From Vicinamibacteria bacterium (GTDB lineage Bacteria > Acidobacteriota > Vicinamibacteria > Fen-336): 37,167 nt of DNA. Position 1 is the first letter of the stretch. Each line of letters opens with the position of its first letter. Where the stretch lies: NCBI GenBank assembly GCA_025923995.1, contig JAICEW010000018.1:1-37167 (forward strand), read 5' to 3'. Shown here piece after piece: positions 7,081 to 31,629 of the stretch. The notes beneath the pieces were generated by a model. That model ran no database searches and was not told where the DNA came from. It was given only the letters and a program-made list of their open reading frames with translations. The position numbers and the translations under genes are program-made.

Positions 7081-7094
7081 ATGACAGGCGTCAT
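7081..7094. promoter_or_regulatory. Fnr/Dnr-type box ATGACAGGCGTCAT (ATGAC-N4-GTCAT), centred 63.5 bp upstream of the ATG at 7151
   Basis: Both palindromic half-sites are perfect. Four more copies of the same motif lie in other promoter regions of this window. Confidence 0.55.
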
Positions 7095-7150
7095 AGGGCG
7101 CTGGCCGAGGGCATGACCACAATGGTCGCGCGACGATCAGGAGGAGTTCC

Positions 7151-7768
7151 ATGAGACCGTACCGCCCCCTTCTCGGAGCGCTCGCCGCTGCCGCGCTCGC
7201 GTTCTTCGCGGCGCCGTCCGCGGCCCGCGCCCACTGCGACACCATGGACGGCCCGGTGGTCGAGGAAGCGCTGGCCGCGCTGGCCTCCGGCGACGTGGTG
7301 CCGGTGCTGAAGTGGGTTCCGCCCGAGAGCGAGTCGCTGGTGCGAGACGTCTTCCGGCACACGCTCGCGGTCCGTGCCCTGGGACCGGAGGCGAAGGAGC
7401 TCGCCGACCGCTACTTCTTCGAGACACTCGTCCGAGTCCATCGCCAGGGCGAAGGAGAGCCGTACACCGGCCTCAGGCGCGCCGGGTCCCCGGTCGCTCC
7501 GGTCGTCGTGGCCGCCGACCGGGCCCTCGACGCGGGCTCGGCCGACGAGCTGGCGCGGATCCTGGGCGACACGATGGACCGGGGCCTGAAGGAGCGGTTC
7601 GCCCGCGCGGTCGAGGCCAGGAAGCACGCTTCCGAGAGCATCGAGAAGGGCCGGGCGTACGTGGCGGCCTACGTCGAGTTCGTCCACCACGCGCAGCGGC
7701 TACAGGACGCCGCCGGAGCCACGCCCGCGGTGCACGATGAGCACCCCTCGAGCGCGCACGCGCACTAG
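7151..7768 (+). CDS. Secreted conserved hypothetical protein (HCDTMDGPVV N-terminal motif, C-terminal His-rich tail); candidate periplasmic metal-binding protein
   Basis: AGGAGG lies 6 nt upstream of the ATG. The signal peptide MRPYRPLLGALAAAALAFFAAPSAARA ends with the A-x-A rule, which predicts a mature N-terminus of HCDT... The C-terminal tail is ...VHDEHPSSAHAH. Confidence 0.8.
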   Translation: MRPYRPLLGALAAAALAFFAAPSAARAHCDTMDGPVVEEALAALASGDVVPVLKWVPPESESLVRDVFRHTLAVRALGPEAKELADRYFFETLVRVHRQGEGEPYTGLRRAGSPVAPVVVAADRALDAGSADELARILGDTMDRGLKERFARAVEARKHASESIEKGRAYVAAYVEFVHHAQRLQDAAGATPAVHDEHPSSAHAH

Positions 7769-7800
7769 CCCTCACGCCGTCGGGGCCGCGGGCGTCGGTG

Positions 7801-8646
7801 CTACTGGCCGGCGATTCCGCGGTTGACCAGCACCTTCGCGACCACCCGGCGGTTCTGGGCCCGGCCCGCGGAGGTCTCGTTGGACGCGGCCGGCTGGGCC
7901 GTGCTCATCGCGCCCGGCGCGAGCATCCGGTGGAAGGGGATGCCGCCGTTCTGCGCCAGCCAGTTGACGACGGCCTGGCTGCGCTCCAGGCTGAGCTTCT
8001 GGTTGACGTCCGCGCTGCCCGAGGCGTCGGCGTACCCCTCGACGCCGATCATGTAGCCCGGCAGCTCCTTCGCCCTGGCGGCGATCCGCGCCAGCTCGCT
8101 CGCGCCCTCCTGCGAGAGGGCCGCGCTGCCGACCTCGAAGTAGACCGTCCCTTCCGCGAGGACGTCGTAGTCTCCCAGCTGTCCGAAGCGCCGTGTCAGC
8201 TCGGCCTGCTCGCCCTGGACCTGACCGATCGCCTGCTTGTTGGCGTCGACCTGGCCCTGGGTCTCCGCCAGGCCGGCCTGGATGGCGCGCGCCGTCTTCA
8301 GGTCCTGCGAGGCGAAGCGGACCTTGGTCGCGATGAGCTGGCCGTGGTCGTCGCCCACGCCTTCCACCTCGACCCGCAGGCCGGGGATCAGCGCCGTCGC
8401 CGCGGCGCCCTCCTTGAGGATACCCAGCCGTCCCTTCTTGACCTTGACGTCCGTGCTGGCGGTGAGCCTGGCGACGACGGTCCCCATCTCGTTCTTGAGG
8501 GTCATGCTCTCGCCGGCACGGGAGGTGATCACGCCGTCGATCTTCGTCTTCTGGCCGAGCGGGATCTCGCGGGCGAACGTCAGCGGCGCCGCCGACAGCA
8601 CCAGCGAGACGGCGAGGGATTGCGCGCGAAGCGGGATCAGCTTCAT
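7801..8646 (-). CDS. OmpA-family protein (C-terminal OmpA-like peptidoglycan-binding domain), signal peptide
   Basis: The C-terminal domain carries the OmpA_C hallmark (...GYADASGSADVNQKLSLERSQAVVNWL...). The N-terminal signal is MKLIPLRAQSLAVSLVLSAAPLTFA. Confidence 0.85.
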   Translation of the reverse strand: MKLIPLRAQSLAVSLVLSAAPLTFAREIPLGQKTKIDGVITSRAGESMTLKNEMGTVVARLTASTDVKVKKGRLGILKEGAAATALIPGLRVEVEGVGDDHGQLIATKVRFASQDLKTARAIQAGLAETQGQVDANKQAIGQVQGEQAELTRRFGQLGDYDVLAEGTVYFEVGSAALSQEGASELARIAARAKELPGYMIGVEGYADASGSADVNQKLSLERSQAVVNWLAQNGGIPFHRMLAPGAMSTAQPAASNETSAGRAQNRRVVAKVLVNRGIAGQ

Positions 8647-8686
8647 GTCCGCAATGGTACGCCCGGATGGGAGCGGACGATGCCGG

Positions 8687-13020: not shown

Positions 13021-13060
13021 TCTCGACCCGTCGTCGGGACGGTCGGCTAGACTCGCGGCC

Positions 13061-13900
13061 ATGAGACATTCCGCCCTCTTGGCGCTCGTTCTGGCCCTCG
13101 CAGGCAGGTCCGCGCAGGCGGCCGAGCTCGAGCTGACCGGCTTCGTCGGGCTGACGCTGCCCTTCTACGAACAGACGTTCCCGATCGACCTGCGCCCGCC
13201 CGCGCAGCCCATCCAGGGCATCCAGATCCTGCAGGTCGAGCCGCTGCGCCTCAACGCGAAGGGGAGCTACACCTTCGCGGGCGCGGCCACGATCTACTTC
13301 GGCGCGCTCGGCATCGAAGGCCGCTACGACTCGGCCGACGCGGACCTGACCGCCGATCCGCCGGTATACTCGATCCGGCTTTCGAGCCCGTTCCCGAGCT
13401 TCACCACGAACCTCCAGCCCGCCCCGACGGTCGTGTCCCTCGCCGCCCTCACGCCGCTCTCGCTGAACCTGAAGATCCGCACCTCGGGTGCCGTCCGGTT
13501 CTTCGTCTCGGGCGGCATCAGCTACCTGCCCGACTTCCAGCTCGCGGTGCGCCAGCCGCTGAACCTGCGCTTCGCCGGAGTCGGCCTCCCGCCCGGATTC
13601 GACCTGGGCACGCTCACGGCGGAAGCGATCTCGCGGCCGGACGATCCCGAGGAGGGCAGCCGGCTCGGGGGCAACGGAGGGCTCGGCCTGCAGGTCGGGC
13701 TGGGCGAGCACCTGGCGCTCGTGGGCGACGCGCGGGCCTTCTACTTCCCGAAGCAGGTGCTCGAGTGGCGCGTCACCCAGACGGGCGGCGCCGTCGCGCT
13801 GCCGCCCGCGCTCGTCCAGTCGATCGAGCAGCAGCTGGAGCCGGTGCGGTTCAACCCCGCGTACTTCCACCTGCAGGGCGGGCTGGCGCTGTCTTTCTAG
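13061..13900 (+). CDS. Small outer-membrane beta-barrel protein (OmpW/OmpA-barrel-like), signal peptide
   Basis: The signal peptide is MRHSALLALVLALAGRSAQA. Alternating hydrophobic beta-strands end in ...GGLALSF. The stop codon overlaps the convergent regulator gene's stop. Confidence 0.65.
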   Translation: MRHSALLALVLALAGRSAQAAELELTGFVGLTLPFYEQTFPIDLRPPAQPIQGIQILQVEPLRLNAKGSYTFAGAATIYFGALGIEGRYDSADADLTADPPVYSIRLSSPFPSFTTNLQPAPTVVSLAALTPLSLNLKIRTSGAVRFFVSGGISYLPDFQLAVRQPLNLRFAGVGLPPGFDLGTLTAEAISRPDDPEEGSRLGGNGGLGLQVGLGEHLALVGDARAFYFPKQVLEWRVTQTGGAVALPPALVQSIEQQLEPVRFNPAYFHLQGGLALSF

Positions 13901-14583
13901 GCGCGGGTCAGCTCCTCGAGGGCCGCGCGGTCGGCGAGGACGAACCCGTCCTTCTCGGTCTCGAGGATGCCTTCCTTGCCCCAGCGGCTCATCAGGCGGA
14001 TGCAGGTCTCGATGGTCGTGCCGGTGAGGTCGGCCAGCTCCTGCCGGGTGAGGACCATCGGGATGAAGACCGCTCCCTCGCGTGCTCGACCCACCCGGTC
14101 CGCGAGCTTCAGGAACAGGTGCGCGAAGCGGGTCTCCACGCGCGCGCCCGCGACCTCCGGGATCCGCTGCGCCAGCTCGACGATGCGCCTCGTGAACGCG
14201 GACAGCAGGCCGCGCACGAGGGACGGGTGCTTCTCGAGCAGCGCGAAGAGCGGGCCGCGGCGGACGAGGAGGCAGGTCGTGCGGTCGAGCGCGATCGCGC
14301 TCGCCGGGAAGGGCCGGCCCTCGTAGGCCACGACCGCGCCCACGGGATCGCCCGGCCCGAAGATCTCGAGGATCACTTCCTTTCCGGACGGCTGCAGCTT
14401 CACCACCTTGACGCGGCCGGTGAGGACGGTGAGCAGGAAGTCGGAGGGGTCGCCTTCATTGAAGATGACCTCCCCCTTGTCCCACGACTTCACCAGCGCG
14501 ACTTCCGCCAGGCGCCGGCGGTCGTCGTCGGAAAGGCCGCGGTAGAGGGACGCGGTCCGGAGCGCCTCGCCGACGGGGTTCAA
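13897..14583 (-). CDS. Crp/Fnr-family transcriptional regulator (cNMP-binding domain plus C-terminal HTH; no N-terminal Cys cluster, so Dnr/NnrR/Nss-like rather than Fnr proper)
   Basis: The cNMP-binding fold and HTH (ELADLTGTTIETCIRLMSRWGKEGIL, with E..R in the recognition helix) are present. TTG start lies 18 bp downstream of the FGE-like gene stop, so it is probably co-transcribed with the nos operon. Confidence 0.8.
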   Translation of the reverse strand: MNPVGEALRTASLYRGLSDDDRRRLAEVALVKSWDKGEVIFNEGDPSDFLLTVLTGRVKVVKLQPSGKEVILEIFGPGDPVGAVVAYEGRPFPASAIALDRTTCLLVRRGPLFALLEKHPSLVRGLLSAFTRRIVELAQRIPEVAGARVETRFAHLFLKLADRVGRAREGAVFIPMVLTRQELADLTGTTIETCIRLMSRWGKEGILETEKDGFVLADRAALEELTRA

Positions 14584-14600
14584 GATGGGTCGATCTTACG

Positions 14601-15809
14601 CTATGGCCGGACCGTCCCTCCGCCCAGGATCGCGGCCACCCTGAAGCCGAGGTCGTCGCTGCTGAGCTGGGGCTGGAACTCCTCGCGGTAGGCGAGCTGG
14701 AGCCGCACGGCGCTCGCGCTGTACCACGAGCCGCCACGCGTCACGCGCATGCCGGGAAGGGCGTCCAGGTTGCGGGCGTCCTCGCGGTAGGGGTTCTTCG
14801 CGTTGTAGGGACGGAACAGCGACTGCGTCCATTCGCGCGCGTTGCCGGACGCGTGGAACACGCCGTACCGGTTGGGCCGGTAGCCGTGTGCCGTCGCCTC
14901 GAGCCCGACCAGCGTGGTGGCGGCGCCGGGGTTCTTGCGCCAGTTGTACTGCCCGGCCTCCCGCTCGCTCAGCTCCATCCCGATCCCGTAGTCGAAGCCG
15001 TCGGGGCCGCGCGCGGCCTTCTCCCACTCGGCCTCGGTCGGCATGCGGTAGAGCCAGCGCCCGTCACCGAGCCGGCGGGTCAGCCACCGGCAGTAGGCGT
15101 TCGCCTCGTACCAGTTCACGAGCACGACGGGCAGGTCGTCGCGCCCGAAGCGCGCGTAACGGGGATGTGAGGGAACGAGGCGCGCCGTCGCCTCCGAGAG
15201 GCCGTGCGACCGCCAGGCCCAGCCGGCGTCCGTCCAGCTCGAGCGATCGCCGTACCCGCGCGGGTCGGCCAGGAACGCGCGGAACTCGCGGTTCGTCACC
15301 TCGAACGCGGCCAGGTGGAACGACGGCACCCAGACGGCGTGCGGATGGCCCGGGTTGTGGCGATCGCCCATGGTGAAGGAGCCGCCGGGCACGAAGACGA
15401 ACCCCGGCGCACGATCGTCGAGACGCGCCGGCCGCTCGGACGCGACCCGGCGCACGGTCACGGGCCAGGCGTCGCCACCGTCGGGCGGCTCGGCCTCGGG
15501 GCCCGACGTCACCGGGAAGAGCTGCCGCTCGCCCGCGAGCTCGGCTTCGACGAAGTAGCGTCCGGGCGGCAGCCAGGACGCGTCGCCCTCGAGCGGCACC
15601 GGCTGCGCGTCCTCGAGCGTGGCTCCCGTCCGGCGCAGCGACACCGAGGCGCCCGCCGGGTTGACGATCCGCAGCTGGATCTCGCCGCGCGCCGAGTGAC
15701 GCGACCGCAGCGCCCCTGCCAGCTCGCGACGGGCGTACGCTCCCGCGCCGGAGAGGAGCGCGACGGTGGCGGCCGCCGCTGCCGCCACCGCCCAGAGGCG
15801 CCAGCGCAC
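14601..15809 (-). CDS. FGE-sulfatase (SUMF1/DUF323) domain protein, NirV-like, with N-terminal signal/anchor
   Basis: SUMF1 motifs are present (FVFVPGGSFTMGD, NWYEANAYCRWL, RMPTEAEWEKAARG, RGGSWYS). There is only one Cys, so the catalytic Cys pair of true formylglycine-generating enzymes is absent. GTG start sits 13 nt after the fasciclin gene stop. Confidence 0.8.
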   Translation of the reverse strand: MRWRLWAVAAAAAATVALLSGAGAYARRELAGALRSRHSARGEIQLRIVNPAGASVSLRRTGATLEDAQPVPLEGDASWLPPGRYFVEAELAGERQLFPVTSGPEAEPPDGGDAWPVTVRRVASERPARLDDRAPGFVFVPGGSFTMGDRHNPGHPHAVWVPSFHLAAFEVTNREFRAFLADPRGYGDRSSWTDAGWAWRSHGLSEATARLVPSHPRYARFGRDDLPVVLVNWYEANAYCRWLTRRLGDGRWLYRMPTEAEWEKAARGPDGFDYGIGMELSEREAGQYNWRKNPGAATTLVGLEATAHGYRPNRYGVFHASGNAREWTQSLFRPYNAKNPYREDARNLDALPGMRVTRGGSWYSASAVRLQLAYREEFQPQLSSDDLGFRVAAILGGGTVRP

Positions 15810-15821
15810 GAGGACAGCCCC

Positions 15822-16298
15822 CTACTGGGGCGGCAGCAGGACGGTGTCGATGGCGTGGACCATTCCGTTGGTGCAATCGATGTTCGCCTTGACCACCTTC
15901 GCGCCGTTCACGGAGACGGCGGCGCCCGTGACCGCGAAGGTCACCGGCTTGCCCTGTGCCGTGCCCGTCTGCTTCACCAGCTTGAAGTCGTCGGTGGTCC
16001 ACTTCGACGTGAGGACGTGGTACTTCAGGACCTCCTGCAGCTTCGCCTTGTCCTTGGCCAGGCCGGCGAGCACCTCCTTCGGGACCTTGGCGAACGCCTC
16101 GTCGGTGGGCGCGAACACCGTGTAGGGCCCCGGCCCCTTCATCACGCCGACGAGGTCGGCGTCCGTCAGCAGCTGCGCGAGCGTCTTGAAGCTGCCGGCC
16201 GCGACCGCGGTGTCCACGATGTCCTTCGGCTGGGCGAGGGCCGGCCGCGCGAGCGCCACGAACGCGGCGACGGCCCACAGGCACGAACGAGTCGTCAT
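15822..16298 (-). CDS. Fasciclin (FAS1) domain protein, secreted
   Basis: The FAS1 signature is present (YTVFAPTDEAFAKVPKEVLAGL...KYHVL...NGMVHAIDTVLLP). AAGGAGG lies 4 nt upstream of the ATG, and the signal peptide is recognisable. Confidence 0.85.
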   Translation of the reverse strand: MTTRSCLWAVAAFVALARPALAQPKDIVDTAVAAGSFKTLAQLLTDADLVGVMKGPGPYTVFAPTDEAFAKVPKEVLAGLAKDKAKLQEVLKYHVLTSKWTTDDFKLVKQTGTAQGKPVTFAVTGAAVSVNGAKVVKANIDCTNGMVHAIDTVLLPPQ

Positions 16299-16323
16299 GG
16301 GACCTCCTTGGCGATGCGTCGTC

Positions 16324-19872: not shown

Positions 19873-19873
19873 C

Positions 19874-20500: not shown

Positions 20501-20525
20501 ATGTCACCTCCGGCGGGCAACGAAT

Positions 20526-20545
20526 GGGGTGCGACGCCGCACCCC
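20526..20545 (-). other. Hairpin GGGGTGCG-ACGC-CGCACCCC in the nosZ-nosB spacer
   Basis: The perfect 8-bp stem was read from the sequence. No U-run follows it. Confidence 0.45.
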
Positions 20546-20602
20546 GGCCCGAACCACGGACACGCGGCGAAGCGGGATCCACTCCCGCGAGCCGCGGGGG
20601 GG

Positions 20603-20632
20603 TCTGGGGGGTGCGGCGCAGCACCCCCCAGA
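20603..20632 (-). other. Hairpin TCTGGGGGGTGC-GGCGCA-GCACCCCCCAGA beginning 1 nt after the nosZ stop codon
   Basis: The perfect 12-bp stem was read from the sequence. It may be an intra-operon attenuator or mRNA-stabilising structure. Confidence 0.5.
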
Positions 20633-20633
20633 C

Positions 20634-22490: not shown

Positions 22491-22512
22491 GATTGCCTCC
22501 TTCAAGGCGTCG

Positions 22513-23763
22513 CTACCTCTGCCGGCTCTCGATCACCTGGCCGGGGTTCTTCTGCGGCTCGCTGGCCGCGATCCTCTGGTGCTCGGCGAACGCCTCGCGC
22601 AGCCGGGCGACCGCCGCCGCCTTCTCCTCCGGGGTGAGCACGATCTGGCGCGAGAGCACGACCTGCATGGTCCCGGTCGGCTTGTCGAGGAAGTCGTCCA
22701 GCGTGCGGCCGAAGCGGGTCTGGACGTCCTCGACGGCGGTGGAGAGGTCCGGGCCGATCTGCGCCGGGCTCTTCACCCCGTACACGGACACCGAGTGGCA
22801 CACGAAGCAGCCGGTCTTGACGAACCACGCGCCCGGCCCCTCGCGCATGCGCTTGTCCTGCTCCTTCTCCTCGACGGTCTGCGGATCGGTGCGCGGCACG
22901 CCCGGCACCAGCGAGGCAGGCACCGGCGCCTTGCGCCAGGACTGCACGAGCATCGCCAGGGCCTGCGCGTCCTTCGTGGTGAAGTGGAAGTTCGGCATCA
23001 CCGTGTCCTGGACGAGCGCGCGGGGATCCTTGAAGTGCGCGACGTGCCACGCGAAGCTCGACTTCTGGCCCGAAAGGCGCCCGTATTCGTACTGCTCCGC
23101 GGGTTTGTCGCCCGCGTTCGTGAGGTCGGGCCCGATGGTCCCGCCCCGCCCGTTGATCACGTGGCAGGCGCGGCAGCCCTTGTCCTGCACGAGCCGCTTG
23201 GCGTGGTTGATGAACTCGGCGCCCTTCGTCTCCCGGTCGTAGCGATGGCAGACGTTGCAGTTGGACTGCATGAGCGCGCCCTTGTCCTCGACGATCGAGT
23301 AGGCCTCGCCCATTGCCCTGCCGAGCAGCGGCTCCTCCCAGAAGTGCACGGGCCCGTGGGCGGGCTCCATGTCCACGGCGTAGCCCTGCCCGCCGTGGCA
23401 GGAGGTGCAGCCGTGGACCTCGGGCGGATGGGTGCGCAGGATCTCCTGCGGGTGGGTCTTGAAGGGATGCTCCGCGGACTCGAACCCCTTCCAGTTGGTC
23501 GCCTGGTGGCACGTGACGCAGCGGTCGGCGCGGCCCATCGACGAGACCCAGATCTGCTGCATCCCGGAGGGGACCGTCCTGGCCTTGTCGGCCCCGTACT
23601 TCTCGGCGACGAGCCGCTTGAACTCGGCCTGGTACCAGCGCCATTCGTGCTCGCGGTCGTTGCGGAGGAACAGCACGGTCGCGGCCACGAGCAGGAGTCC
23701 GATGACGGCCAGGACCGGCCGGTCCAGCCGCGGGTAGGGCGAGTCGGTGCGCTTCTCCGTCAT
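22513..23763 (-). CDS. Membrane-anchored pentaheme c-type cytochrome
   Basis: It has five CxxCH motifs (CVTCH, CTSCH, CNVCH, CRACH, CFVCH) and an N-terminal TM helix. GAGAGG lies 6 nt upstream of the ATG. Confidence 0.85.
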   Translation of the reverse strand: MTEKRTDSPYPRLDRPVLAVIGLLLVAATVLFLRNDREHEWRWYQAEFKRLVAEKYGADKARTVPSGMQQIWVSSMGRADRCVTCHQATNWKGFESAEHPFKTHPQEILRTHPPEVHGCTSCHGGQGYAVDMEPAHGPVHFWEEPLLGRAMGEAYSIVEDKGALMQSNCNVCHRYDRETKGAEFINHAKRLVQDKGCRACHVINGRGGTIGPDLTNAGDKPAEQYEYGRLSGQKSSFAWHVAHFKDPRALVQDTVMPNFHFTTKDAQALAMLVQSWRKAPVPASLVPGVPRTDPQTVEEKEQDKRMREGPGAWFVKTGCFVCHSVSVYGVKSPAQIGPDLSTAVEDVQTRFGRTLDDFLDKPTGTMQVVLSRQIVLTPEEKAAAVARLREAFAEHQRIAASEPQKNPGQVIESRQR

Positions 23764-23776
23764 TTCTCGCCTCTCA

Positions 23777-25126
23777 TCAGATCCTCGTGGGCAGCTCGGG
23801 CCAGGCCTGCCAGGGCCAGAAGAACTGCCAGGACGGGCCGCGCATGAAGGTGCCGACGATCGTGAGCGCCACCACGACGAGCACGATCAGGAGGAAGACG
23901 AGGTTCTGCCGGCGCCGGCTGCCGTGGAACCAGACGCCCGCGGCCTCGCCGCGCGAGCGGTCGATCCAGGGCCAGGCGGCCAGCAGCCCGACGAGGAGGC
24001 CGGGCAGGATCACGCCGCCCAGGAAGGCGCCGTTGACGGTGAAGCCGCCCACCGTGAACGTGGTGTCCGTCACGATCTCCTGCAGCCAGAGGAAGTACCA
24101 GGGCGCCTTGGCCGGGTTCGGGGTGACCAGCGGGTTCGCCGGCTCCTCCAGCGGCGAGCGCACGAGCGACGCCAGGACGCTGATCACCGCGAAGGTGCCC
24201 AGCACCGCGACCGCGGCGCGCCGCACGAGGTCGGGGACCGCGTTCACGGTCAGGTCGCGCGCTTCCAGGGTGGACGTGCGGATGGTGGGCGCGGTGCCGC
24301 GCGCGACGCCCAGCAGCGTGTAGGTCTTGCTGCGCACGGGCTCGTCGGCCGCCTTCTCGCGGGCGGTCGCCACGCGGTCCGCCCTGGCCAGCCCGCCGTC
24401 CTTGCGCACCCGCCACATGTGGTACGCGAACAGCGCGCCCAGCGCGGCGGGGAGGAAGATCACGTGCAGCGCGTAGAAGCGGATCAGCGTGGGCTGGTCG
24501 ATGTTGCGGCCGCCGATCATCAGCTCCCGCACCTGCGGGCCGATCCAGGGGATGGAGGCGGCGATGTTGGTGCCGACCGTCACCGCCCAGTAGGCGAGCT
24601 GGTCCCAGGGCAGCAGGTAGCCGGTGAACGAGAGGAAGAGCGTCAGCAGGAGCATGGCCACGCCGATCACCCAGTTCCACTCGCGCTGCTGGCCGCGCCC
24701 CGCGCCGTTCTTGTAGGCGCCGGTCAGGAACACGCGGACGAGGTGCAGGAAGACGGCGGCGACCATCAGGTGCGCGGACAGGCGGTGGACCGAGCGGATC
24801 CAGGAGCCGAAGGTCACCACCCACTCGATGTCCTTGACCGACCCGTAGGCCCGCTCGACCGAGGGCACGTAGAGGAAGAGCAGCGGCAGGCCCGAGACCA
24901 CGAGCAGCAGGAGGAGCGCGGCGCTGATGGTCCCGAGCCAGTACGAGTAGGTCCAGTCGAGCGACGGCTTGAACACCTTGGCCGGGAACCAGTGCAGGAG
25001 GAAGTTGGAGACGACGGCGTCGCCTGCCTCCCGGTCGGATCGCGGCCGCAGGCTCCACAGCCGCTTCGGGTGCACGCCCGGCGCGGCGGGCGCCGCCGGG
25101 GTCGCCGGTTTCGCGAGAGTGGCCAT
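23777..25126 (-). CDS. Cytochrome b (bc-complex type, fused b6/subunit-IV-like)
   Basis: It carries conserved cytochrome b helices with heme-ligating His (VHRLSAH..LHLVRVFLTGAY; YALHVIFLPAALGALFAYHMW). GAGGAGGAGGAG lies upstream of the ATG. Confidence 0.9.
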   Translation of the reverse strand: MATLAKPATPAAPAAPGVHPKRLWSLRPRSDREAGDAVVSNFLLHWFPAKVFKPSLDWTYSYWLGTISAALLLLLVVSGLPLLFLYVPSVERAYGSVKDIEWVVTFGSWIRSVHRLSAHLMVAAVFLHLVRVFLTGAYKNGAGRGQQREWNWVIGVAMLLLTLFLSFTGYLLPWDQLAYWAVTVGTNIAASIPWIGPQVRELMIGGRNIDQPTLIRFYALHVIFLPAALGALFAYHMWRVRKDGGLARADRVATAREKAADEPVRSKTYTLLGVARGTAPTIRTSTLEARDLTVNAVPDLVRRAAVAVLGTFAVISVLASLVRSPLEEPANPLVTPNPAKAPWYFLWLQEIVTDTTFTVGGFTVNGAFLGGVILPGLLVGLLAAWPWIDRSRGEAAGVWFHGSRRRQNLVFLLIVLVVVALTIVGTFMRGPSWQFFWPWQAWPELPTRI

Positions 25127-25138
25127 CGCTCCTCCTCC

Positions 25139-25648
25139 TCAGGCCGTGGTGAGACGGAAGTCGCGGCCGACCTCCTGCGCGAGGTCGACCACGAGCTGGC
25201 CGTCGTCGGGGGAGACGCTCAGGTGGAACCACAAGAGCGGCCGCGGAGCCGGTCCGGACACGACCTTGCCGTCCCCGGTGTACTTCGAGCCGTGGCAGGG
25301 ACACGCGAAGCGATGCGTCACGCGCAGCTGCGCGCCGCCGACCTCCACCGTCTCGGGCTGGGGCAGCGCCTCCGCGCGGACGGTGCAGCCGAGGTGGGTG
25401 CACACGGCGGACACCGCGTGGAACACCTTGCCCTCGCGGAACACGAACAGCCGCTGCTCGGGCAGGAACTTCATCCCGTCCGGGAAGTCGGCCGGCAGCC
25501 CGACCTTGACGGTGGTGGGCGCGTCGTAGGACACGTTGGGCAGCAGCGAGCGCAGCGAGGCCGCGGCCTGGGTGCCGATGCCGACGCCGCCCGCGCCGAT
25601 GCCGAGCTTCACGAGGAAGTCCCGGCGGTTCTTCTGCTCTCGGCTCAT
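25139..25648 (-). CDS. Rieske [2Fe-2S] protein with Tat signal
   Basis: The Tat motif is NRRDFLVKLGIGA. The Rieske boxes are CTHLGC and CPCHGS. The ATG overlaps the upstream gene's stop (ATGA). Confidence 0.9.
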   Translation of the reverse strand: MSREQKNRRDFLVKLGIGAGGVGIGTQAAASLRSLLPNVSYDAPTTVKVGLPADFPDGMKFLPEQRLFVFREGKVFHAVSAVCTHLGCTVRAEALPQPETVEVGGAQLRVTHRFACPCHGSKYTGDGKVVSGPAPRPLLWFHLSVSPDDGQLVVDLAQEVGRDFRLTTA

Positions 25649-27582
25649 GCGGTCTCCTGGGAAGGCGCGGCCGGCGCCGGGCGCTCCTGGATCTGGAAGC
25701 GCTCCATGGTCATCGCGTCGGTGGGGCAGCGGACGGCGCAGAGGCCGCACCGGATGCAGCGGTCGTCGTCCTTGATCATCGCGGACAGCGGCAGGCCGTG
25801 CGCCTGCGCGCGCTCCGTGAGCTCGGCGCGCTCCGCCTCCGGCAGGTCGAGCGACTCGAAGGGAACGATGGCCAGGCAGTACTCGGGGCACACGTCCACG
25901 CAGCGGCTGCAGAGCACGCACTTCTCGGGGTCGTAGATGGTCTGCACGTGGCAGACCAGGCAGCGCGCAGCCTGCCGGATGGCGGCGGCCGGGTCGTAGC
26001 CGGTCTCGACCTCCGCGATCCCGGTGCGCCGGCCGAGGTCGAGCGTGGGCGGCGTCTCGCGGTCGAGGATCTCGAAGCCCGCGAGCATCCGGTAGTCGCG
26101 GGTCGGGATCTTCTCGACGTCCAGCGTGACCTCGATCGCGCTCCGGTCCCCGGCCAGCAGCTCGTGGATGGAGCGCGCGGCGAGCTTGCCGTTCGCGACC
26201 GCCTCGATGAGGTTCCGGGGGCCGAACGCGGCGTCGCCGCCGGCGAAGACACCCGCGGCGGAGGTGGCCAGCGTCCGGGGATCGACGCGGATCGTCCCCG
26301 CGGGCGTCGTGTCGACGCCGTCCTGCGGCGTGAGGAAGTCGAGGTCGGCCTTCTGCCCGATGGCCAGCACGCACGCGTCGGCGTCCAGCGCGATCACGTC
26401 CTCGTCGTCGTAGGCGGGGCTGAAGCGGCCGTTCTCGTCGAACACGGACCGCACCGCGCGCAGCTCGACCTGGCGCAGCCGGCCGTCGCCCAGGAAGCGC
26501 CGGGGGCCGCGGCGGGGCAGGAACGCGACTCCTTCCCGCCGTGCCTCCTCGTACTCGTCGTGCCCCTGCGTCGACTGCAGCACGGGCATCTCGGCGAAGC
26601 TCTCCAGGGAGACGATCGTCACCTCGGTGGCCCCGCCGCGCAGGGCCGCGCGCGCCGAGTCGAACGCCTCCTTCATCCGGGCGTCGCTCTCTCCGGCGAG
26701 CTCCTCCGCTTCCTCCTCGCGGCCCAGGCGCAGCGCGGTGCGCGCCGCGTCGAAGGCCACGAAGCCGCCGCCGATGACCACCACGCGGCGCCCGAGGTTC
26801 ATCCGGTAGCCGCGGTTGACGTTCAGGAGGTAGTCGACCGCCTTCACCACGCCGTCCAGCTCGACGCCGGGCACCTGCAGGTCGCGGCCGCGCGAGACGC
26901 CGACGGAGAGGAAGACGGAGCGGAAGCCCTGCGCGCGCAGCTGCGCGAGGCCGAAACCGGGCGTGAGCGCGACGCCCGAGCGCAGCGTGACGCCCAGCGC
27001 GAGGATCTTCTGGATCTCCTCGTGGATGAGCGTCCGCGGGAGCCGGTACTCGGGGATGCCGAAGCGCATCATCCCCCCCGGCTCCGACGCCGCGTCGAAG
27101 ACCGTGACGTCGTAGCCGAGCAGGGCGAGGTCGTGGGCCGCGGACAGGCCCGCCGGCCCCGCGCCCACCACCGCGACCTTGGCCCGCTCGGCGGGGGCCG
27201 GCCCGCCGAAGGGGACGACGGGAAGGTGGCCGCGGTAGACGTTGCCTTCGAGCAGCGGCGCCTGGCGGAGGCGGTCCTGCGTGTCGGGCCGGCGCGACTC
27301 GACGCCGTACTGCTCGGTGACGTAGCGCTTCAGCGCGCGGATGGAGATGGGGGCGTCGATGTTCCCGCGCCGGCAGGCGTCCTCGCAGGGTGCGGCGCAG
27401 ACGCGCCCGCAGACCGAGGCGAACGGGTTGGGCGCGCGCGCGACGAGGTAGGCCTCCTCGTTCCGTCCCTCGGCGATCAGCTGGACGTAGCGGCCGGCGT
27501 CGGTGCGGACGGGACAGCCCGACTGGCACTTGACCTGCGCCTTCCAGTGCTCGAGATCGGGAAGCTGTACGCGCACGGGCAT
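25645..27582 (-). CDS. GltD-like FAD/NAD(P)-binding oxidoreductase with N-terminal Cys-cluster and C-terminal 2x[4Fe-4S] ferredoxin domain; first gene of the nos operon
   Basis: It has two Rossmann motifs (VAVVGAGPAGLSAA; RRVVVIGGGFVAFDAA). The N-terminus carries a GltD-type Cys cluster, and the C-terminus has CLVCH, CVLCSRCVDVCP and CIRCGLCAVRCP. No signal peptide is present. ATG at 27582 is preceded by GAGAGGTG; a GTG at 27591 is an alternative start. Confidence 0.75.
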   Translation of the reverse strand: MPVRVQLPDLEHWKAQVKCQSGCPVRTDAGRYVQLIAEGRNEEAYLVARAPNPFASVCGRVCAAPCEDACRRGNIDAPISIRALKRYVTEQYGVESRRPDTQDRLRQAPLLEGNVYRGHLPVVPFGGPAPAERAKVAVVGAGPAGLSAAHDLALLGYDVTVFDAASEPGGMMRFGIPEYRLPRTLIHEEIQKILALGVTLRSGVALTPGFGLAQLRAQGFRSVFLSVGVSRGRDLQVPGVELDGVVKAVDYLLNVNRGYRMNLGRRVVVIGGGFVAFDAARTALRLGREEEAEELAGESDARMKEAFDSARAALRGGATEVTIVSLESFAEMPVLQSTQGHDEYEEARREGVAFLPRRGPRRFLGDGRLRQVELRAVRSVFDENGRFSPAYDDEDVIALDADACVLAIGQKADLDFLTPQDGVDTTPAGTIRVDPRTLATSAAGVFAGGDAAFGPRNLIEAVANGKLAARSIHELLAGDRSAIEVTLDVEKIPTRDYRMLAGFEILDRETPPTLDLGRRTGIAEVETGYDPAAAIRQAARCLVCHVQTIYDPEKCVLCSRCVDVCPEYCLAIVPFESLDLPEAERAELTERAQAHGLPLSAMIKDDDRCIRCGLCAVRCPTDAMTMERFQIQERPAPAAPSQETA

Positions 27583-27633
27583 GCGGGGCACCTCTCGCCG
27601 GGAAGAGTGTCCGGCTCGCCCGCAGGCAACGGT

Positions 27634-27647
27634 ATGACCGTCGTCAT
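27634..27647. promoter_or_regulatory. Fnr/Dnr-type box ATGACCGTCGTCAT, ~58 bp upstream of the nos-operon first gene (minus strand)
   Basis: It has perfect ATGAC/GTCAT half-sites with an N4 spacer. Confidence 0.55.
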
Positions 27648-27698
27648 GGGGATTCGTGAGCCATCGGGCTCATTCGCGGGTGCACGTTCGGGCCCATC

Positions 27699-27712
27699 CT
27701 GACGGCCGTCAT
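27699..27712. promoter_or_regulatory. Fnr/Dnr-type box cTGACGGCCGTCAt, centred 55.5 bp upstream of the hemerythrin gene start (27761)
   Basis: The 12-bp perfect palindrome is TGACGGCCGTCA. Together with the box at 27634..27647 it forms a divergent promoter pair. Confidence 0.55.
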
Positions 27713-27760
27713 ACCCGCGCGCGCCGCATCGGCGCATAACGGGTCGGAAGGAGGCCGGAC

Positions 27761-28366
27761 GTGCAGATAGCGATCGAAGTCCTGATGAACGAGCACCGCC
27801 TGATCGAGCAGGCGCTGGGGTCCCTCGAGACGTACGCCGTCGAGGTCCGGGCCGGGCTGGCGCCGGCCCGGCAGATCGTCGGCGAGTACGCCTCGTTCTT
27901 CCGCGGCTTCGCGGACGGCTGCCACCACGGCAAGGAGGAGGACGTGCTGTTCCAGCGCCTGCTGGAGCGGGGCTTCCCGCGCCAGTCGGGGCCGCTGGCG
28001 GTGATGTACCACGAGCACGAGCTCGGACGCGCTCACGTCGGCGCCCTGTCCGGGATCGCAGAGCGGCCGGGCTCGGTCCAGACGCCGGAGGTCGAGGCGC
28101 TGCTCGCCAGTGCCGACGCCTTCGTGCCCCTCCTCCGCCAGCACATCCTCAAGGAGGACCGCATCCTCTACCCGATGGCGCTCGACGTGCTGAGCGGTCC
28201 GGAGCTCGACGCGATGAACACGCAGTTCGAGGAGTTCGAGGCGACGATGCGCGTGGACGGCACCTACGACGCCCTGCAGGCGCTGGCGGAGCGCCTGATC
28301 GTCCGTTTCCGCCCGGACCCGGTCCGCATGGCCGCGGTCTCGCAGATGGCCCACTGCGGCCGATGA
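27761..28366 (+). CDS. Hemerythrin-like (HHE cation-binding) domain protein
   Basis: GGAAGGAGG lies 6 nt upstream of the GTG. It has repeated H..HH / HE / H...KED metal-ligand spacing (NEHRLIE, GCHHGKEED, YHEHELGRAH, QHILKEDR). Confidence 0.8.
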   Translation: MQIAIEVLMNEHRLIEQALGSLETYAVEVRAGLAPARQIVGEYASFFRGFADGCHHGKEEDVLFQRLLERGFPRQSGPLAVMYHEHELGRAHVGALSGIAERPGSVQTPEVEALLASADAFVPLLRQHILKEDRILYPMALDVLSGPELDAMNTQFEEFEATMRVDGTYDALQALAERLIVRFRPDPVRMAAVSQMAHCGR

Positions 28367-29427
28367 CCCTGGTCGCCCGGCCCCTCCGGGCGCGCGAGCT
28401 GCGCGCCCGCAGCCGGGGGATCCGGTGGCTGAGGCACCTGGTCCAGGCAGGCGCCGCGGTCCTGGTCCTGTGGATCGGATGGGACTTCGTACTGTGGGTC
28501 CGCGGCCTGGAGTCCGGACAGATGACAGCCCAGCGCCCGCCCGGCGTCGAGGGCTTCCTCCCGATCGCCGCGCTCATGAGCCTGCGCCACCTGTGGAGCG
28601 CCGCCGAGGTCCATCCGGTGCACCCCGCGGGCCTCGTGATCCTGCTGGCGATCGTCGGCACCGGCCTCGTGCTCAAGAAGGCGTTCTGCTCGTGGCTGTG
28701 CCCGGTGGGGACGATCGCGGAGATGCTGGCCTCGGTCGGCCTCACGGCCTTCGCCCGGCGCGTCCGGCTGCCGAGGGCGCTGGACCTGCCGCTGCGCGGG
28801 GTGAAGTACCTGCTGCTGCTCTTCTTCGTCCACGCCATCTTCGTCGCCCTGTCCCCCAGCGCGATCGCCGCCTTCCTGGACGCGCCCTACAACCGGGTGG
28901 CGGACGTGAAGATGCTGTACTTCTTCGAGCGGCTCTCGCCGTTCGCGCTCAAGGTCCTCGCGTTCCTGGTCGTGCTGTCGATGGTCGTTCCCTTCGCCTG
29001 GTGCCGCTACCTCTGCCCGTATGGTGCCCTGCTGGGGGCGCTGTCCCTGCTCTCGCCGCTCAAGGTCACGCGCCACGCGCCGTCGTGCATCGACTGCGGC
29101 CTGTGCACGAAGGCCTGCCCATCGCTCCTGCCCGTCCATCGCCTCGGGCGCGTCCGTTCGGACGAGTGCTCCGCGTGCCTGTCGTGCGTGGCGGCGTGCC
29201 CCGTCCCGCGCGCGTTGCGCGTGGAGACGCCCCGGCCGTGGCGGCGCGCGGTCCGGCCCGCCGCCTTCGCGTGTCTCGTCCTGCTGCTGTTCGGCGGCAC
29301 CATCCAGGCCGCCCGGGTCTGGGGCGTGTGGCGGAACGCCATCACAGACGCGGAGTACGCCGAGCGCCTGCGGGAGATCGACTCCTACGACCACCTGCGC
29401 GGCGGCGAGCCGTCCGGGGGATCGTAG
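28363..29427 (+). CDS. NapH/NosR(C-terminal)-like membrane polyferredoxin (4Fe-4S binding)
   Basis: TM helices alternate with CSWLCPVG and CRYLCPYG motifs, then two ferredoxin motifs CIDCGLCTKACP and CSACLSCVAACP. The ATG overlaps the hemerythrin stop (ATGA). It has no FMN-binding N-terminal domain. Confidence 0.8.
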   Translation: MTLVARPLRARELRARSRGIRWLRHLVQAGAAVLVLWIGWDFVLWVRGLESGQMTAQRPPGVEGFLPIAALMSLRHLWSAAEVHPVHPAGLVILLAIVGTGLVLKKAFCSWLCPVGTIAEMLASVGLTAFARRVRLPRALDLPLRGVKYLLLLFFVHAIFVALSPSAIAAFLDAPYNRVADVKMLYFFERLSPFALKVLAFLVVLSMVVPFAWCRYLCPYGALLGALSLLSPLKVTRHAPSCIDCGLCTKACPSLLPVHRLGRVRSDECSACLSCVAACPVPRALRVETPRPWRRAVRPAAFACLVLLLFGGTIQAARVWGVWRNAITDAEYAERLREIDSYDHLRGGEPSGGS

Positions 29428-30464
29428 GCGCACAGCGGGTCCTCGGCGAACGCGTCGCCGGTCGCCGCGAAGGCGCGGGAACGGGATCCACCGCAGACCG
29501 CGCGCAGCTCGCAGCGGCCGCAGCGGCCGCCCAGCGCGTCGGGGTCGCGCAGGCGCCTGAAGACCGGGTCGTCGCGGTAGGTCTGGACCAGCCGTCCCTC
29601 GCGCGCGTTGCCGCGCGCCATGGGAAGGAACCCGCTCGGGCAGACGTTCCCGACGTGGTCCACGAAGGCGAACCCGTTGCCGTCGTTGACCGCGCGGGGC
29701 GCGCGCAGCTGCCGGCGGCCGAGGCTGGTCGTGGTGGCGCCCGCGCGCTCGCTGGCCATCTGGATCCGGCGATAGTGGGGCGCCTCGGTCGTCTTGATCC
29801 CGAAGGGGACCCGGCGCGAGAGGTCGTCCAGGAAGCGCAGCACGTCCTCGCACTCGTGGGGCGTGATCTGCTCGAGGCTCGCGCCTCGGCCCGTCTGCAC
29901 CAGGAAGAACGCGGCCCACAGCGTGAGCGGGAACGTCGCCACCCGCTCCGCCAGCTCGGGCAGGTGCGGGAGCGTCAGGCGGCTCACGGTCGAGTTGACC
30001 TGGAGCGGCAGCCCGAGACCGATCACCGCATCGATGATCTTCATCGTGTTCGCGTACGAGCCCTTCACGCGCCGGAACGCGTCGTGGCTCTCGGGGTCCG
30101 GGCCGTCGAGGCTCACCGCGACGCGCGAGAGGCCGGCCGCCTTCAGCTCCTCGAGCCGGGCGCGCGTCGCCATCGCGGTGCCGCTGGGGGTGAGCGCGAC
30201 CGTGAGCCCGATCCGCGTCGCATGGCCCACCAGCTCCGCCAGGTCCTTGCGCCACATCGGGTCGCCGCCGGTGAGGACGAGCAGGGGAGGCGGCGTCCCG
30301 AACGCGCGGATCTGATCGAGCAGGTGGAAGCCTTCCTCCGTGCCGAGCTCGCGCGGGTCCCGGCGGGCGATGGCGTCGGCGCGGCAGTGCACGCAGCTGA
30401 GCGCGCAGGCGCGCGTCACCTCCCAGATGACCAGGAAGGGCGTCCGGTCGAAGTCGACGACCAT
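29385..30464 (-). CDS. Radical SAM protein with partial SPASM/twitch C-terminal Cys motif (NirJ/AhbD/PqqE-like subfamily)
   Basis: It has the CxxxCxxC cluster in IWEVTRACALSCVHCRA and C-terminal CGRCELRAVCGG plus further Cys. There is no Shine-Dalgarno sequence. The Fnr-type box is centred exactly 41.5 bp upstream of the ATG. Confidence 0.8.
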   Translation of the reverse strand: MVVDFDRTPFLVIWEVTRACALSCVHCRADAIARRDPRELGTEEGFHLLDQIRAFGTPPPLLVLTGGDPMWRKDLAELVGHATRIGLTVALTPSGTAMATRARLEELKAAGLSRVAVSLDGPDPESHDAFRRVKGSYANTMKIIDAVIGLGLPLQVNSTVSRLTLPHLPELAERVATFPLTLWAAFFLVQTGRGASLEQITPHECEDVLRFLDDLSRRVPFGIKTTEAPHYRRIQMASERAGATTTSLGRRQLRAPRAVNDGNGFAFVDHVGNVCPSGFLPMARGNAREGRLVQTYRDDPVFRRLRDPDALGGRCGRCELRAVCGGSRSRAFAATGDAFAEDPLCAYDPPDGSPPRRWS

Positions 30465-30498
30465 GGCCGATGGTCGGACGATCCGCGCTCCCGGCCCA

Positions 30499-30512
30499 TG
30501 ACGGCCGTCATA
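30499..30512. promoter_or_regulatory. Fnr/Dnr-type box ATGACGGCCGTCAT between the divergent radical-SAM and methyltransferase genes
   Basis: It is a perfect 14-bp palindrome. Its centre is 41.5 bp from the rSAM ATG and 40.5 bp from the methyltransferase ATG at 30546. Confidence 0.6.
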
Positions 30513-30545
30513 CGCACGGGAGGCGGGGCGGCGCGATGATGGAGC

Positions 30546-31229
30546 ATGGACCCACTGGCCGGCTCGTCCTGGAGCGCGCCCGCGACGGTGGCCGGCTTCG
30601 CTCGCTCGTCGCCGAACGAGGTGCTGATGCGCTTCGCCCAGGATCACCTGGGCCGCATCGGCGGCGGGCGGCTGCTGGATCTCGGGTGCGGCGCCGGCCG
30701 CAACGCCGTGCCGCTCGCGCGCGAGGGCTGGGAGGTCCTGGGAACGGATCTGTCGTGGCCCATGCTGCGCGCCGCAAAGCGCCGCGTCGAGGACGAGGGC
30801 CTCGGGCGCCGCCTCCGGCTCGCCCTGGCGCCCATGGACCTCGTGCCGGCCGCGGACCGCGGCTTCGACGTCGTGGTCGCTCACGGGATCTGGAACCTCG
30901 CGCGTTCTTCCGCGGAGTTCCGGCGCGCCGTGGCGGAGGCGGCTCGCGTGGCGCGCAGAGGGGCCCGCCTCTTCGTGTTCACGTTCTCCCGCCACACGCT
31001 TCCGCCCGAGGCGGAGCCCGTCGCCGGCGAGCCGTTCGTCTTCACGGACTTCTCGGGCGAGCCCCAGTGCTTCCTCAGCGCGGAGCAGCTCGCGGCGGAG
31101 CTCGGCCAGGCCGGCTTCGTCCCGGACCCGGAGGTTCCGCTGACCGAGTACAACCGCCCCGCGCCGGGTCTCACGCGCGTGGGCGGGCCGCCGGTCATCT
31201 ACGAAGCGCTGTTCCGCCGCTCCGACTGA
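30546..31229 (+). CDS. Class I SAM-dependent methyltransferase
   Basis: Motif I is LLDLGCGAGRNAVPLA, and an acidic motif II and post-I region are present. The start is uncertain: ATG 30546 has a weak RBS, while ATG 30627 (MRFAQ...) has GAGG 5 nt upstream. Confidence 0.7.
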   Translation: MDPLAGSSWSAPATVAGFARSSPNEVLMRFAQDHLGRIGGGRLLDLGCGAGRNAVPLAREGWEVLGTDLSWPMLRAAKRRVEDEGLGRRLRLALAPMDLVPAADRGFDVVVAHGIWNLARSSAEFRRAVAEAARVARRGARLFVFTFSRHTLPPEAEPVAGEPFVFTDFSGEPQCFLSAEQLAAELGQAGFVPDPEVPLTEYNRPAPGLTRVGGPPVIYEALFRRSD

Positions 31230-31236
31230 CGGGCCC

Positions 31237-31581
31237 TCAGCCCTTCGGCTCCCGGAGCATCACGAGCAGCATCCGGGTGGCCTCGGACGCGTCGAGGGCG
31301 TGAGGCACGCCGCCGGGCATGCGGACGATGGTCCCCGGCGTCGCGCGGACGCTCTCGCCGCCGATCGTGAGCGCCAGCGATCCCTCCAGGACGAGCACGA
31401 GGGCATCGAAGGGCGAGGTGTGCTCCTCGAGCCCCTGGCCGGCGTCGAAGGCGAAGAGCGTGACGTTGCCGCCCGCCGTCCTCGCGAGCACGCGGCTCGC
31501 GATCCCGCGTTCGGTCGGGGTGACGAGCGTGGCCAGCGCGAGCGCCTGGGCGGAGGGAATCGACGGAGCGTCCTTGGACAT
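31237..31581 (-). CDS. Cupin-domain protein
   Basis: It has a 114-aa small beta-barrel with cupin motifs (G.LEEHTSPFDALVLVLEG...G..VRMPGGVPHAL). The Fnr-type box is centred 41.5 bp upstream of the ATG. Confidence 0.7.
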   Translation of the reverse strand: MSKDAPSIPSAQALALATLVTPTERGIASRVLARTAGGNVTLFAFDAGQGLEEHTSPFDALVLVLEGSLALTIGGESVRATPGTIVRMPGGVPHALDASEATRMLLVMLREPKG

Positions 31582-31615
31582 GGCCCGACCCTATCGCGAC
31601 GGCTCGGCGGGCGCC

Positions 31616-31629
31616 ATGACGGCCGTCAT
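31616..31629. promoter_or_regulatory. Fnr/Dnr-type box ATGACGGCCGTCAT upstream of the cupin gene
   Basis: It is a perfect 14-bp palindrome (a 16-bp palindrome if flanks are included: cATGACGGCCGTCATg). Confidence 0.6.

Follow-up and report, generated by a model that had tools for sequence, protein, structure and literature searches.

FNR, FixK and Dnr act at TTGAT/C-N4-G/ATCAA sites centred at -41.5, and Dnr or NnrR controls nir, nor and nos genes. HcpR1 of Deltaproteobacteria and cyanobacteria is predicted to recognise wyTTGACnnnnGTCAArw (Rodionov et al., 2005, PMC1274295), whereas Crp/Fnr control of clade II nosZ, which encodes nitrous oxide (N2O) reductase, is known or proposed in Campylobacterota, with NssA, NssB and NssC of Wolinella and its relatives proposed to control a nosR-less clade II nos cluster (PMC11539149). 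In Thermus thermophilus, drpAB depends on the Crp-family protein DnrT and modulates DnrT-dependent denitrification genes, DrpA being a DUF2249 protein (PMC6282519). Here we analyse a stretch of 37,167 nucleotides, hereafter the window, which is the whole contig JAICEW010000018.1 of a metagenome-assembled genome (MAG) of a Vicinamibacteria bacterium (Acidobacteriota; assembly GCA_025923995.1) and has a G+C content of 71%. It carries a clade II-type nos operon together with five palindromes built on the core TGAC-N4-GTCA. We consider it likely that these palindromes are operators of a dimeric Crp/Fnr activator, most probably the product of the last nos operon gene (13897-14583), and that the five sites drive six transcription units.

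How does this locus compare with the described systems? Its boxes share with FNR, FixK and Dnr sites a 14-bp palindrome with a TGA-N6-TCA core and a 4-bp spacer, a predicted position at -41.5 and promoters with only a -10 element, and the candidate regulator is the same kind of two-domain protein with the Glu and Arg of the recognition helix kept. As in DNR/NnrR regulons, the targets include nos, hemerythrin/YtfE-like and NnrS-type genes (PMC1274295). The half-site here, however, begins with A rather than T and is preceded by a conserved T, and the host belongs to Acidobacteriota, not Proteobacteria. HcpR1 sites contain the same TGAC-N4-GTCA core, and the HcpR1 regulon is likewise related to nitric oxide (NO) stress and predicted by comparative genomics; HcpR1 is nevertheless set apart by its TTGAC boxes and its targets hcp and frdX, there being ATGAC boxes and no hcp among the targets here. 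Judged by site consensus, the ATGAC box also differs from the canonical TTGA-N6-TCAA of the Nss proteins. No earlier account of the literal motif, or of how acidobacterial nos genes are regulated, came up in literature searches. The regulon envisaged is well supported and apparently undescribed, and would represent a specificity variant of a well-known type of regulator and promoter in a lineage of ecological importance that has been little studied, not a new kind of system.

A conserved palindrome in the nos promoter region

Exact matches to ATGACNNNNGTCAT occur four times in the window, compared with 0.01 expected from shuffles, and the fifth site, CTGACGGCCGTCAT, carries a single mismatch in the outer base (a CTGAC variant). 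The core TGAC-N4-GTCA is found exactly five times, with 0.52 expected and none of 100 shuffles reaching five, whereas matches with two mismatches elsewhere in the window (n=8) are at chance level. Genes were called by third-position GC (GC3), with families assigned by Pfam and NCBIfam, and all five boxes are intergenic. An earlier, sequence-only reading of this DNA had claimed five ATGAC-N4-GTCAT copies, non-random and intergenic. Its last two statements are borne out and its count holds for the core, but only four copies have the exact pattern; moreover, the 14-mer ATGACGGCCGTCAT, which three copies were said to share, is common to the sites at 30498 and 31616 only, a third deviating at base 1, and the site given as 30499-30512 lies one nucleotide to the left. 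The boxes, to which no strand is assigned, are as follows.

7081-7094: box 1, gTATGACAGGCGTCATAg, exact match within an extended 16-bp palindrome (7080-7095)
27634-27647: box 2, exact match, predicted to serve the nos operon; orthologous position kept in 43/46 Acidobacteriota loci
27699-27712: box 3, CTGACGGCCGTCAT, with an imperfect distal half-site, predicted to serve the hemerythrin/polyferredoxin pair
30498-30511: box 4, exact match, common to the divergent radical-SAM and methyltransferase genes
31616-31629: box 5, exact match, flanked by the GH97 stop codon and the cupin start codon

Conservation of the box was assessed in 165 sequences (1.76 Mb; loci of ~20 kb). A NosZ scan of species-representative genomes contributed 80 loci, those closest to the window (NosZ 92% identity) being Vicinamibacteria MAGs, after which come other Acidobacteriota classes and Myxococcota; a second set comprised 80 metagenome loci (0.38 Mb) retrieved by regulator alignment alone. 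Together, the sequences contain 117 exact boxes, as against a mean of 0.97 for 59 palindromes of the same composition. The NosZ loci (1.32 Mb) account for 93 cores, 79 of which are full ATGAC-N4-GTCAT boxes. Of the 46 Acidobacteriota loci covering the region upstream of the first nos gene, 37 have an exact box there, at a distance of 43-78 bp, and six further loci carry a site with one mismatch, three of them at the orthologous position, which brings the total to 43/46. In the 11 Myxococcota loci, no box precedes the first nos gene. The half-sites do not vary across the 79 sites, unlike the N4 spacer and the flanks, and one extra conserved position on each side yields the family-wide consensus (T/c)ATGAC-N4-GTCAT(A/g). 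Motif density is not similar within coding regions: only 12% of boxes (n=112) lie deep in open frames, compared with 55% of random positions (p = 5e-21). Two of the control palindromes occurred repeatedly and were ruled out as motifs; TCGAA-N4-TTCGA (28 occurrences) is conserved coding sequence in nosD, and ATCGA-N4-TCGAT (14 occurrences) codes for the regulator helix.

The base preceding TGA in the nos promoter region differs by lineage, with a CRP-like TTGTGACCCAGGTCACAA at ~4806 in L027 and GTGAC..GTCAT at ~4535 in L077. At the orthologous place in L003 (4863) the site is an FNR-like TTGACGCCCGTCAA, and in the Anaeromyxobacteraceae locus L073 an FNR-like TTGACGCCAATCAA precedes the first nos gene by 95 bp. 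Regulators matching these variants do not lie within the four loci. The canonical TTGAT-N4-ATCAA has 0 occurrences in the 1.76 Mb. Within the divergent nos/hemerythrin promoter region, two boxes lie 55-65 bp apart in the window (27634-27712), in L007 (4557/4620) and in L078 (4733/4788), and all three share one imperfection, CTGAC, in the distal half-site of the box on the hemerythrin side.

Promoter geometry and candidate regulator

When 70 box-to-gene pairs were aligned on the box centre, A was found at +30.5 in 63% and T at +34.5 in 70%, in otherwise G+C-rich surroundings. Both bases occur together on the gene side in 61% of pairs but on the non-gene side in 15%, against a background of 2.3% (Fisher p = 3e-8), which defines a tAnnnT -10 element at +29.5 to +34.5 from the box centre. 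In the class II Crp/Fnr arrangement, the activator site is centred at -41.5 and the -10 hexamer spans -12 to -7. Equating tAnnnT with the -12 to -7 element would therefore place the box centre at -41.5, and the promoters appear to have class II activation geometry, the start sites being deduced from the -10 phasing. A scan of 18.5 kb (13500-32000) found no consensus sigma-70 promoter with a -35 element, a result that counts as negative evidence only. The six candidate -10 elements in the window are these.

7118-7123, plus strand: CACAAT, +30.5 to +35.5 relative to the box 1 centre
27606-27611, minus strand: GACACT, nos operon, +29.5 to +34.5 relative to the box 2 centre
27735-27740, plus strand: CATAAC, hemerythrin gene, the weakest of the six
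30470-30475, minus strand: GACCAT, radical-SAM gene
30535-30540, plus strand: GATGAT, methyltransferase gene
31588-31593, minus strand: TAGGGT, cupin gene

The methyltransferase, radical-SAM and cupin mRNAs are probably leaderless, because their start codons lie 41.5, 40.5 (ATG 30464) and 41.5 bp from the respective box centres. In the other three units, leaders of 14-22 nt containing Shine-Dalgarno sequences precede the start codon, which is separated from the box centre by 63.5 bp for box 1 and the DUF6448 gene, 58.5 (ATG 27582) or 49.5 (GTG 27591) for box 2 and the first nos gene, and 55.5 for box 3 and the hemerythrin gene. A methyltransferase gene with the same leaderless geometry is present in the metagenome locus L161 (GTG at +41.5, TACCAT at +29.5), and the radical-SAM genes of L023 and L064 start at ~+40.5 and ~+42.5 from the box centre.

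Which protein might read the box? The last gene of the nos operon encodes a 228-residue protein with an N-terminal beta-barrel of the cyclic-nucleotide (cNMP)-binding type and a C-terminal winged helix-turn-helix (HTH), a combination that places it in the Crp/Fnr superfamily (PF00027, 2e-20; PF13545, HTH_Crp_2, 7.6e-15; PF00325, 5.5e-6). Its recognition helix reads TTIETCIR, and the pattern TT(I/V/M)ETxIRxxSRW holds without exception in orthologues as distant as 43% identity, with T189, T190, E192, T193, I195 and R196 unchanged in 19 orthologues (43-88% identity). Relative to CRP, R180 is replaced by I/V/M, E181 and R185 are kept, and G184, which corresponds to FNR S212, is replaced by Ile in every orthologue. 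It is not an FNR in the strict sense, since the helix has ET-x-IR instead of E--SR and the box is ATGAC-N4-GTCAT instead of TTGAT-N4-ATCAA. The FNR cysteine cluster is missing as well; there is no N-terminal Cys, and no Cys is invariant across the 19 orthologues. The sequence-only reading had placed the protein in the FixK/Dnr/Nss branch, a placement that sequence does not permit: the best NCBIfam match, FixK, reaches 66 bits against a cut-off of 300, with FnrL, FtrB, Fnr, CRP, NtcA, LdrP and YeiL lower. The closest solved relatives are instead actinobacterial CRP/GlxR proteins (4byy, 3r6s, 3d0s; Mycobacterium tuberculosis CRP), which match over the full length with E ~1e-22. Compared with GlxR, the residues contacting cyclic AMP, equivalent to E72, R82 and S83, are replaced (Glu by Ala, Arg by Phe, Thr/Ser by Pro/Ala), the R180 equivalent is Ile where the CRP/GlxR helix has the pattern RE---R/K, the helix is IETCIR rather than RETVNK, and GlxR sites are TGTGA-N6-TCACA. 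Database names for the regulator are generic, although a few JGI records call close homologues 'nitrogen oxide reductase regulator'.

The A-for-T exchange in the box and the Ile-for-Ser exchange in the helix may together constitute a coherent specificity variant. The CRP/FNR specificity swap by Spiro and colleagues in 1990 reportedly used positions 180/208 and 184/212. Covariation with the base preceding TGA has been described for CRP position 180 and the residues around it (PMC1274295), and in FixK2 the equivalent Leu, L195, touches a thymine methyl group (PMC9104804). No CRP-like (R180) regulator for the GTGAC-type boxes of L027 and L077 was found within these loci, and the correlation of Ile with A rests on one family and on published rules for that reason.

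Co-occurrence links this protein to the box, in line with its proposal as candidate regulator in the sequence-only reading. Among loci with enough flank, 20 of the 34 that have a box also contain the regulator gene, as opposed to none of the 9 without a box (one-sided hypergeometric p ~0.0014, a hand calculation from the counts). Loci fetched by the regulator alone again carry the box (~38 copies in the 80 metagenome loci), positioned directly upstream of the regulator, of a DUF2249-regulator operon (8 loci), of a divergent hemerythrin gene or of an adjacent TIGR04053 gene. A box immediately upstream of the regulator gene, suggestive of autoregulation, is seen in L043, L097, L107, L108, L109 and L112.

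A divergent type of nosZ, ~41% identical to that of the window, is also flanked by the regulator family (L102, L104, L129, L130, L132, L147), and L130 has a pair of boxes upstream of its cytochrome c(EB_dh)-nosZ operon of this type; the regulator/box pair is therefore not bound to one type of nos cluster. In one sublineage, a box-controlled gene for an 80-residue DUF2249 protein precedes the regulator (L084, L087, L088, L091, L092, L094, L095, L096, L098). A second open reading frame with a cNMP-binding domain is present in L085, L087, L088, L092 and L095, where it follows the regulator in L095; no HTH-like segment was found in the part of its sequence inspected.

The nos operon and the wider regulon

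Box 2 faces a 13-gene operon that runs on the minus strand from 27582 to 13897. The operon claimed in the sequence-only reading agrees with the Pfam results and is of clade II type, with nosZ, a gene in the nosB position, nosDFYL genes, and Rieske/cytochrome b and cytochrome c genes, which fits the classification of Acidobacteriota nosZ as nosZII (PMC13122619). Intergenic gaps measure 1-25 nt, the sole sizeable one being the 133 nt 3' of nosZ (20500-20634), and no minus-strand terminator-like site was found in the scan of 13500-32000. There is no NosR or ApbE match in the window, where only a polyferredoxin resembles NapH and the NosR C-terminus. All genes listed here are on the minus strand.

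25645-27582: GltD-like Fe-S flavoprotein, first operon gene; ATG 27582 after GAGAGG, alternative GTG 27591
25139-25648: Rieske [2Fe-2S] protein; start approximate
23777-25126: cytochrome b (Pfam)
22513-23763: multihaem cytochrome c (Pfam)
20634-22505: nosZ, N2O reductase (Pfam)
19874-20500: 208-residue protein in the nosB position, no family match, conserved in 73/80 loci
18493-19872: nosD (Pfam)
17582-18496: nosF, ABC ATPase
17151-17585: nosL, lipoprotein (Pfam)
16324-17157: nosY, ABC-2 permease; start approximate
15822-16298: fasciclin-domain protein; own box in 8 other loci
14601-15809: FGE-sulfatase-domain protein; box target in L007 and L040
13897-14583: Crp/Fnr-family regulator, last operon gene

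The order nosD-nosF-nosL-nosY (16324-18496), with overlapping stop and start codons, is unlike the textbook nosDFYL and recurs in L161. The GltD-like NAD(P)-binding flavoprotein, which has two additional ferredoxin clusters, is the conserved first nos-cluster gene in 62 of 80 related loci and precedes the Rieske, cytochrome b and cytochrome c genes in related clusters, Myxococcota included. This suggests that NosZ has an electron-input module of its own, which may be linked to NAD(P)H.

Outside the operon, the other four boxes are predicted to serve these genes.

7151-7768, plus strand: DUF6448 protein with signal peptide, mature N-terminus HCDTMDGPV and His-rich tail; led by a Shine-Dalgarno sequence
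27761-28366, plus strand: hemerythrin (HHE) domain protein, divergent from the nos operon
28363-29427, plus strand: membrane polyferredoxin resembling NapH and the NosR C-terminus
29385-30464, minus strand: radical SAM/SPASM protein of family TIGR04053; box target in 6 other loci
30546-31229, plus strand: class I SAM methyltransferase; L161 orthologue of identical geometry
31237-31581, minus strand: small cupin

The radical-SAM gene, which the sequence-only reading had counted among the genes of unknown function, belongs to TIGR04053 (451 bits against a cut-off of 395); the next-best matches are AhbD, at 303 bits under its cut-off of 500, and NirJ. Searches of the literature on TIGR04053 found no papers. 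The DUF6448 gene lies 20 kb away, beside two tRNA genes. Its family has >4000 homologues, in which the mature N-terminus after the signal peptide, His-Cys-Asp-Thr-x-x-Gly-Pro-Val, is conserved to at least 90%, and H97, H179, E91, E101 and D86 are invariant in the alignment, with a His-rich C-terminal tail. These features are those expected of a periplasmic metal-binding protein, perhaps for Cu; the AlphaFold2 model is a confident helical bundle, without an informative structural relative. The DUF6448 gene is part of the nos operon in L076, adjoins nos and the regulator gene in L161 and neighbours a qNor gene in L163. A 1-kb non-coding stretch upstream of box 1 contains genes for tRNA-His(GTG) and tRNA-Tyr(GTA) on the minus strand (6222-6294 and 6594-6683; ARAGORN). 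At gathering threshold, Rfam reported only tRNA-His, and no riboswitch or small RNA near the boxes.

Comparison across loci supports the regulon joining the nos operon to neighbouring genes that had been proposed from the window, the 'accessory' genes recurring elsewhere as box targets or as neighbours. The box targets were counted as follows.

First nos gene: 35
Hemerythrin: 19
Regulator itself: 9
DUF2249: 8
Fasciclin: 8
TIGR04053 radical SAM: 7
DUF2249-hemerythrin fusion: 5
Variant radical SAM (NF045502): 4
B12-binding radical SAM: 4
Methyltransferase: 3
DUF6448: 3
Cytochrome c with EB_dh domain: 3
FGE-like protein: 2
Single cases: ScdA_N-NnrS fusion, YwiC-like protein, NapH-like polyferredoxin, nosZ directly

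The strongest support for the idea that the targets may be accessory factors is provided by L161 (JGI Ga0606626_0012767, 1-7362) and its 18-kb sister contig, where the dispersed targets of the window are contiguous. Following nosD-nosF-nosL-nosY, the order is hemerythrin, cupin, methyltransferase, B12 radical SAM, DUF6448, radical SAM, cytochrome c, ATP-grasp, a 228-residue Crp/Fnr protein and MFS, and the boxes of the DUF6448 and methyltransferase genes have the same spacing as in the window. One box of this locus (4152-4165), which appears to serve the leaderless methyltransferase gene, is located within the B12 radical-SAM gene at its 3' end.

Mechanism, alternatives and significance

We envision a scenario whereby a Crp/Fnr dimer binds a box centred ~41.5 bp upstream of the transcription start, taking the place of the -35 element, and directly touches RNA polymerase positioned at a weak tAnnnT -10 element at fixed distance, as in class II activation. 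The Ile at the FNR Ser212/CRP Gly184 position would read the altered first base of the box, with the Glu and Arg for the TGA core kept. Five such sites would control the 13-gene nos operon, the hemerythrin and NapH-like polyferredoxin genes, the TIGR04053 radical-SAM gene, the methyltransferase gene, the cupin gene and the DUF6448 gene, and the location of the regulator gene inside the nos operon would create positive feedback. The signal is probably O2 limitation and/or NO, because the targets comprise hemerythrin, DUF2249, ScdA_N-NnrS, O2-independent radical-SAM enzymes and nos; the regulon is predicted to be co-induced with N2O respiration.

Several points weigh against this scenario. The locus counts are not independent, since orthologous promoters share ancestry, and the contrast between loci with and without a box is confounded with phylogeny (Acidobacteriota versus Myxococcota). 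The assignment of the regulator rests on co-localisation, 14 of the 34 box loci have no regulator gene within 10 kb, and the true binder could be a paralogue encoded elsewhere in the genome. The -10 element of the hemerythrin promoter (CATAAC) is poor, and the leaderless starts hinge on the choice of start codon, the radical-SAM open frame extending upstream of ATG 30464. The sensor domain, finally, contains no conserved Cys or His, and hence no cofactor or signal can be named from its sequence.

Could the boxes be class II Crp/Fnr sites that are bound by another paralogue, the nos-linked regulator having a different target? Bacteria commonly carry several Crp/Fnr paralogues, a divergent one (32% identity, helix TTLYTASR) is encoded near a box in L046, and the box loci without an orthologue within 10 kb of nosZ would find an explanation. 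Nevertheless, we regard this alternative as improbable, given that regulator-fetched loci contain many boxes, frequently directly in front of the regulator gene, that an invariant box is everywhere accompanied by an invariant recognition helix, and that no other transcription-factor gene recurs near boxes. Alternatively, the palindrome might be bound by a repressor or by a member of an unrelated family, such as an Rrf2/NsrR-like protein, that shuts the promoters off. A site over -48 to -35 could indeed occlude RNA polymerase, and NsrR-type NO-responsive repressors govern similar genes (hemerythrin/YtfE-like, NnrS) in other phyla (PMC1274295). TGA-N6-TCA half-sites with 4+4 flanks, however, have Crp/Fnr geometry, while NsrR sites are AT-rich repeats of the 11-N-11 type (PMC1274295); there is no -35-like hexamer to mask, with 0 sigma-70 consensus promoters in 18.5 kb; the fixed 41.5-bp phase with the -10 element is typical of activator-dependent class II promoters; and no Rrf2-type gene recurs in the loci. 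Repression is thus very unlikely.

Least credible is a non-regulatory origin as a dispersed REP-like repeat, a hairpin or terminator, or by chance, which might be suspected of short GC-rich palindromes in intergenic DNA, all the more as box 5 closely follows the stop codon of GH97. Chance would yield 0.01-0.5 sites; a hairpin here would have 5 bp in its stem, 4 nt in its loop and no T-run, and no terminator-like site coincides with any box; a repeat element does not account for half-sites that are invariant across Acidobacteriota classes while flanks and N4 spacer vary, nor for boxes oriented upstream of genes with a phased -10 element. Half-site conservation, orthologous position, -10 phasing and promoter bias effectively refute these readings, and activation by a Crp/Fnr dimer, most probably the operon-encoded one, remains the explanation we favour.

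A bolder version of that explanation, which we put forward only tentatively and consider rather unlikely, is that the regulator is a cofactor-less, non-sensing protein served by small box-controlled DUF2249 and hemerythrin partners, encoded beside it in most genomes, that sense O2 or NO, and that its targets (DUF6448, cupin, methyltransferase, B12-dependent and TIGR04053 radical SAM, fasciclin and FGE-like proteins) act in maturation or cofactor supply for N2O/NO respiration. DrpA/DnrT of Thermus offers a precedent for flanking small proteins as sensing partners. A point of resemblance to that system is that in the relatives a box-bearing DUF2249, DUF2249-hemerythrin or hemerythrin gene lies directly upstream of, or divergent from, the regulator; in contrast to it, the window has no DUF2249 gene, and its hemerythrin pairs with a polyferredoxin.

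What would such a regulon mean? The Crp/Fnr field would gain a natural specificity variant in which an A-TGA box is paired with Ile at the FNR Ser212 position. Maturation of clade II N2O reductase and its electron supply are poorly understood, and DUF6448, the cupin, the methyltransferase, three radical-SAM families, the fasciclin and FGE-like proteins and the NapH-like polyferredoxin become candidate accessory factors. Vicinamibacteria nosZ-II is the most prevalent acidobacterial nosZ in soils world-wide according to a 2026 survey, which is silent on regulation, and N2O reduction has been shown in a cultured member (PMC13122619). If the reading with Drp-like partners were true, these most abundant soil carriers of nosZ-II would harbour unrecognised factors of N2O/NO respiration. 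Operator, candidate regulator and phased promoter together provide a handle on when the Vicinamibacteria N2O sink switches on, and make a genome-wide scan for the regulon trivial.

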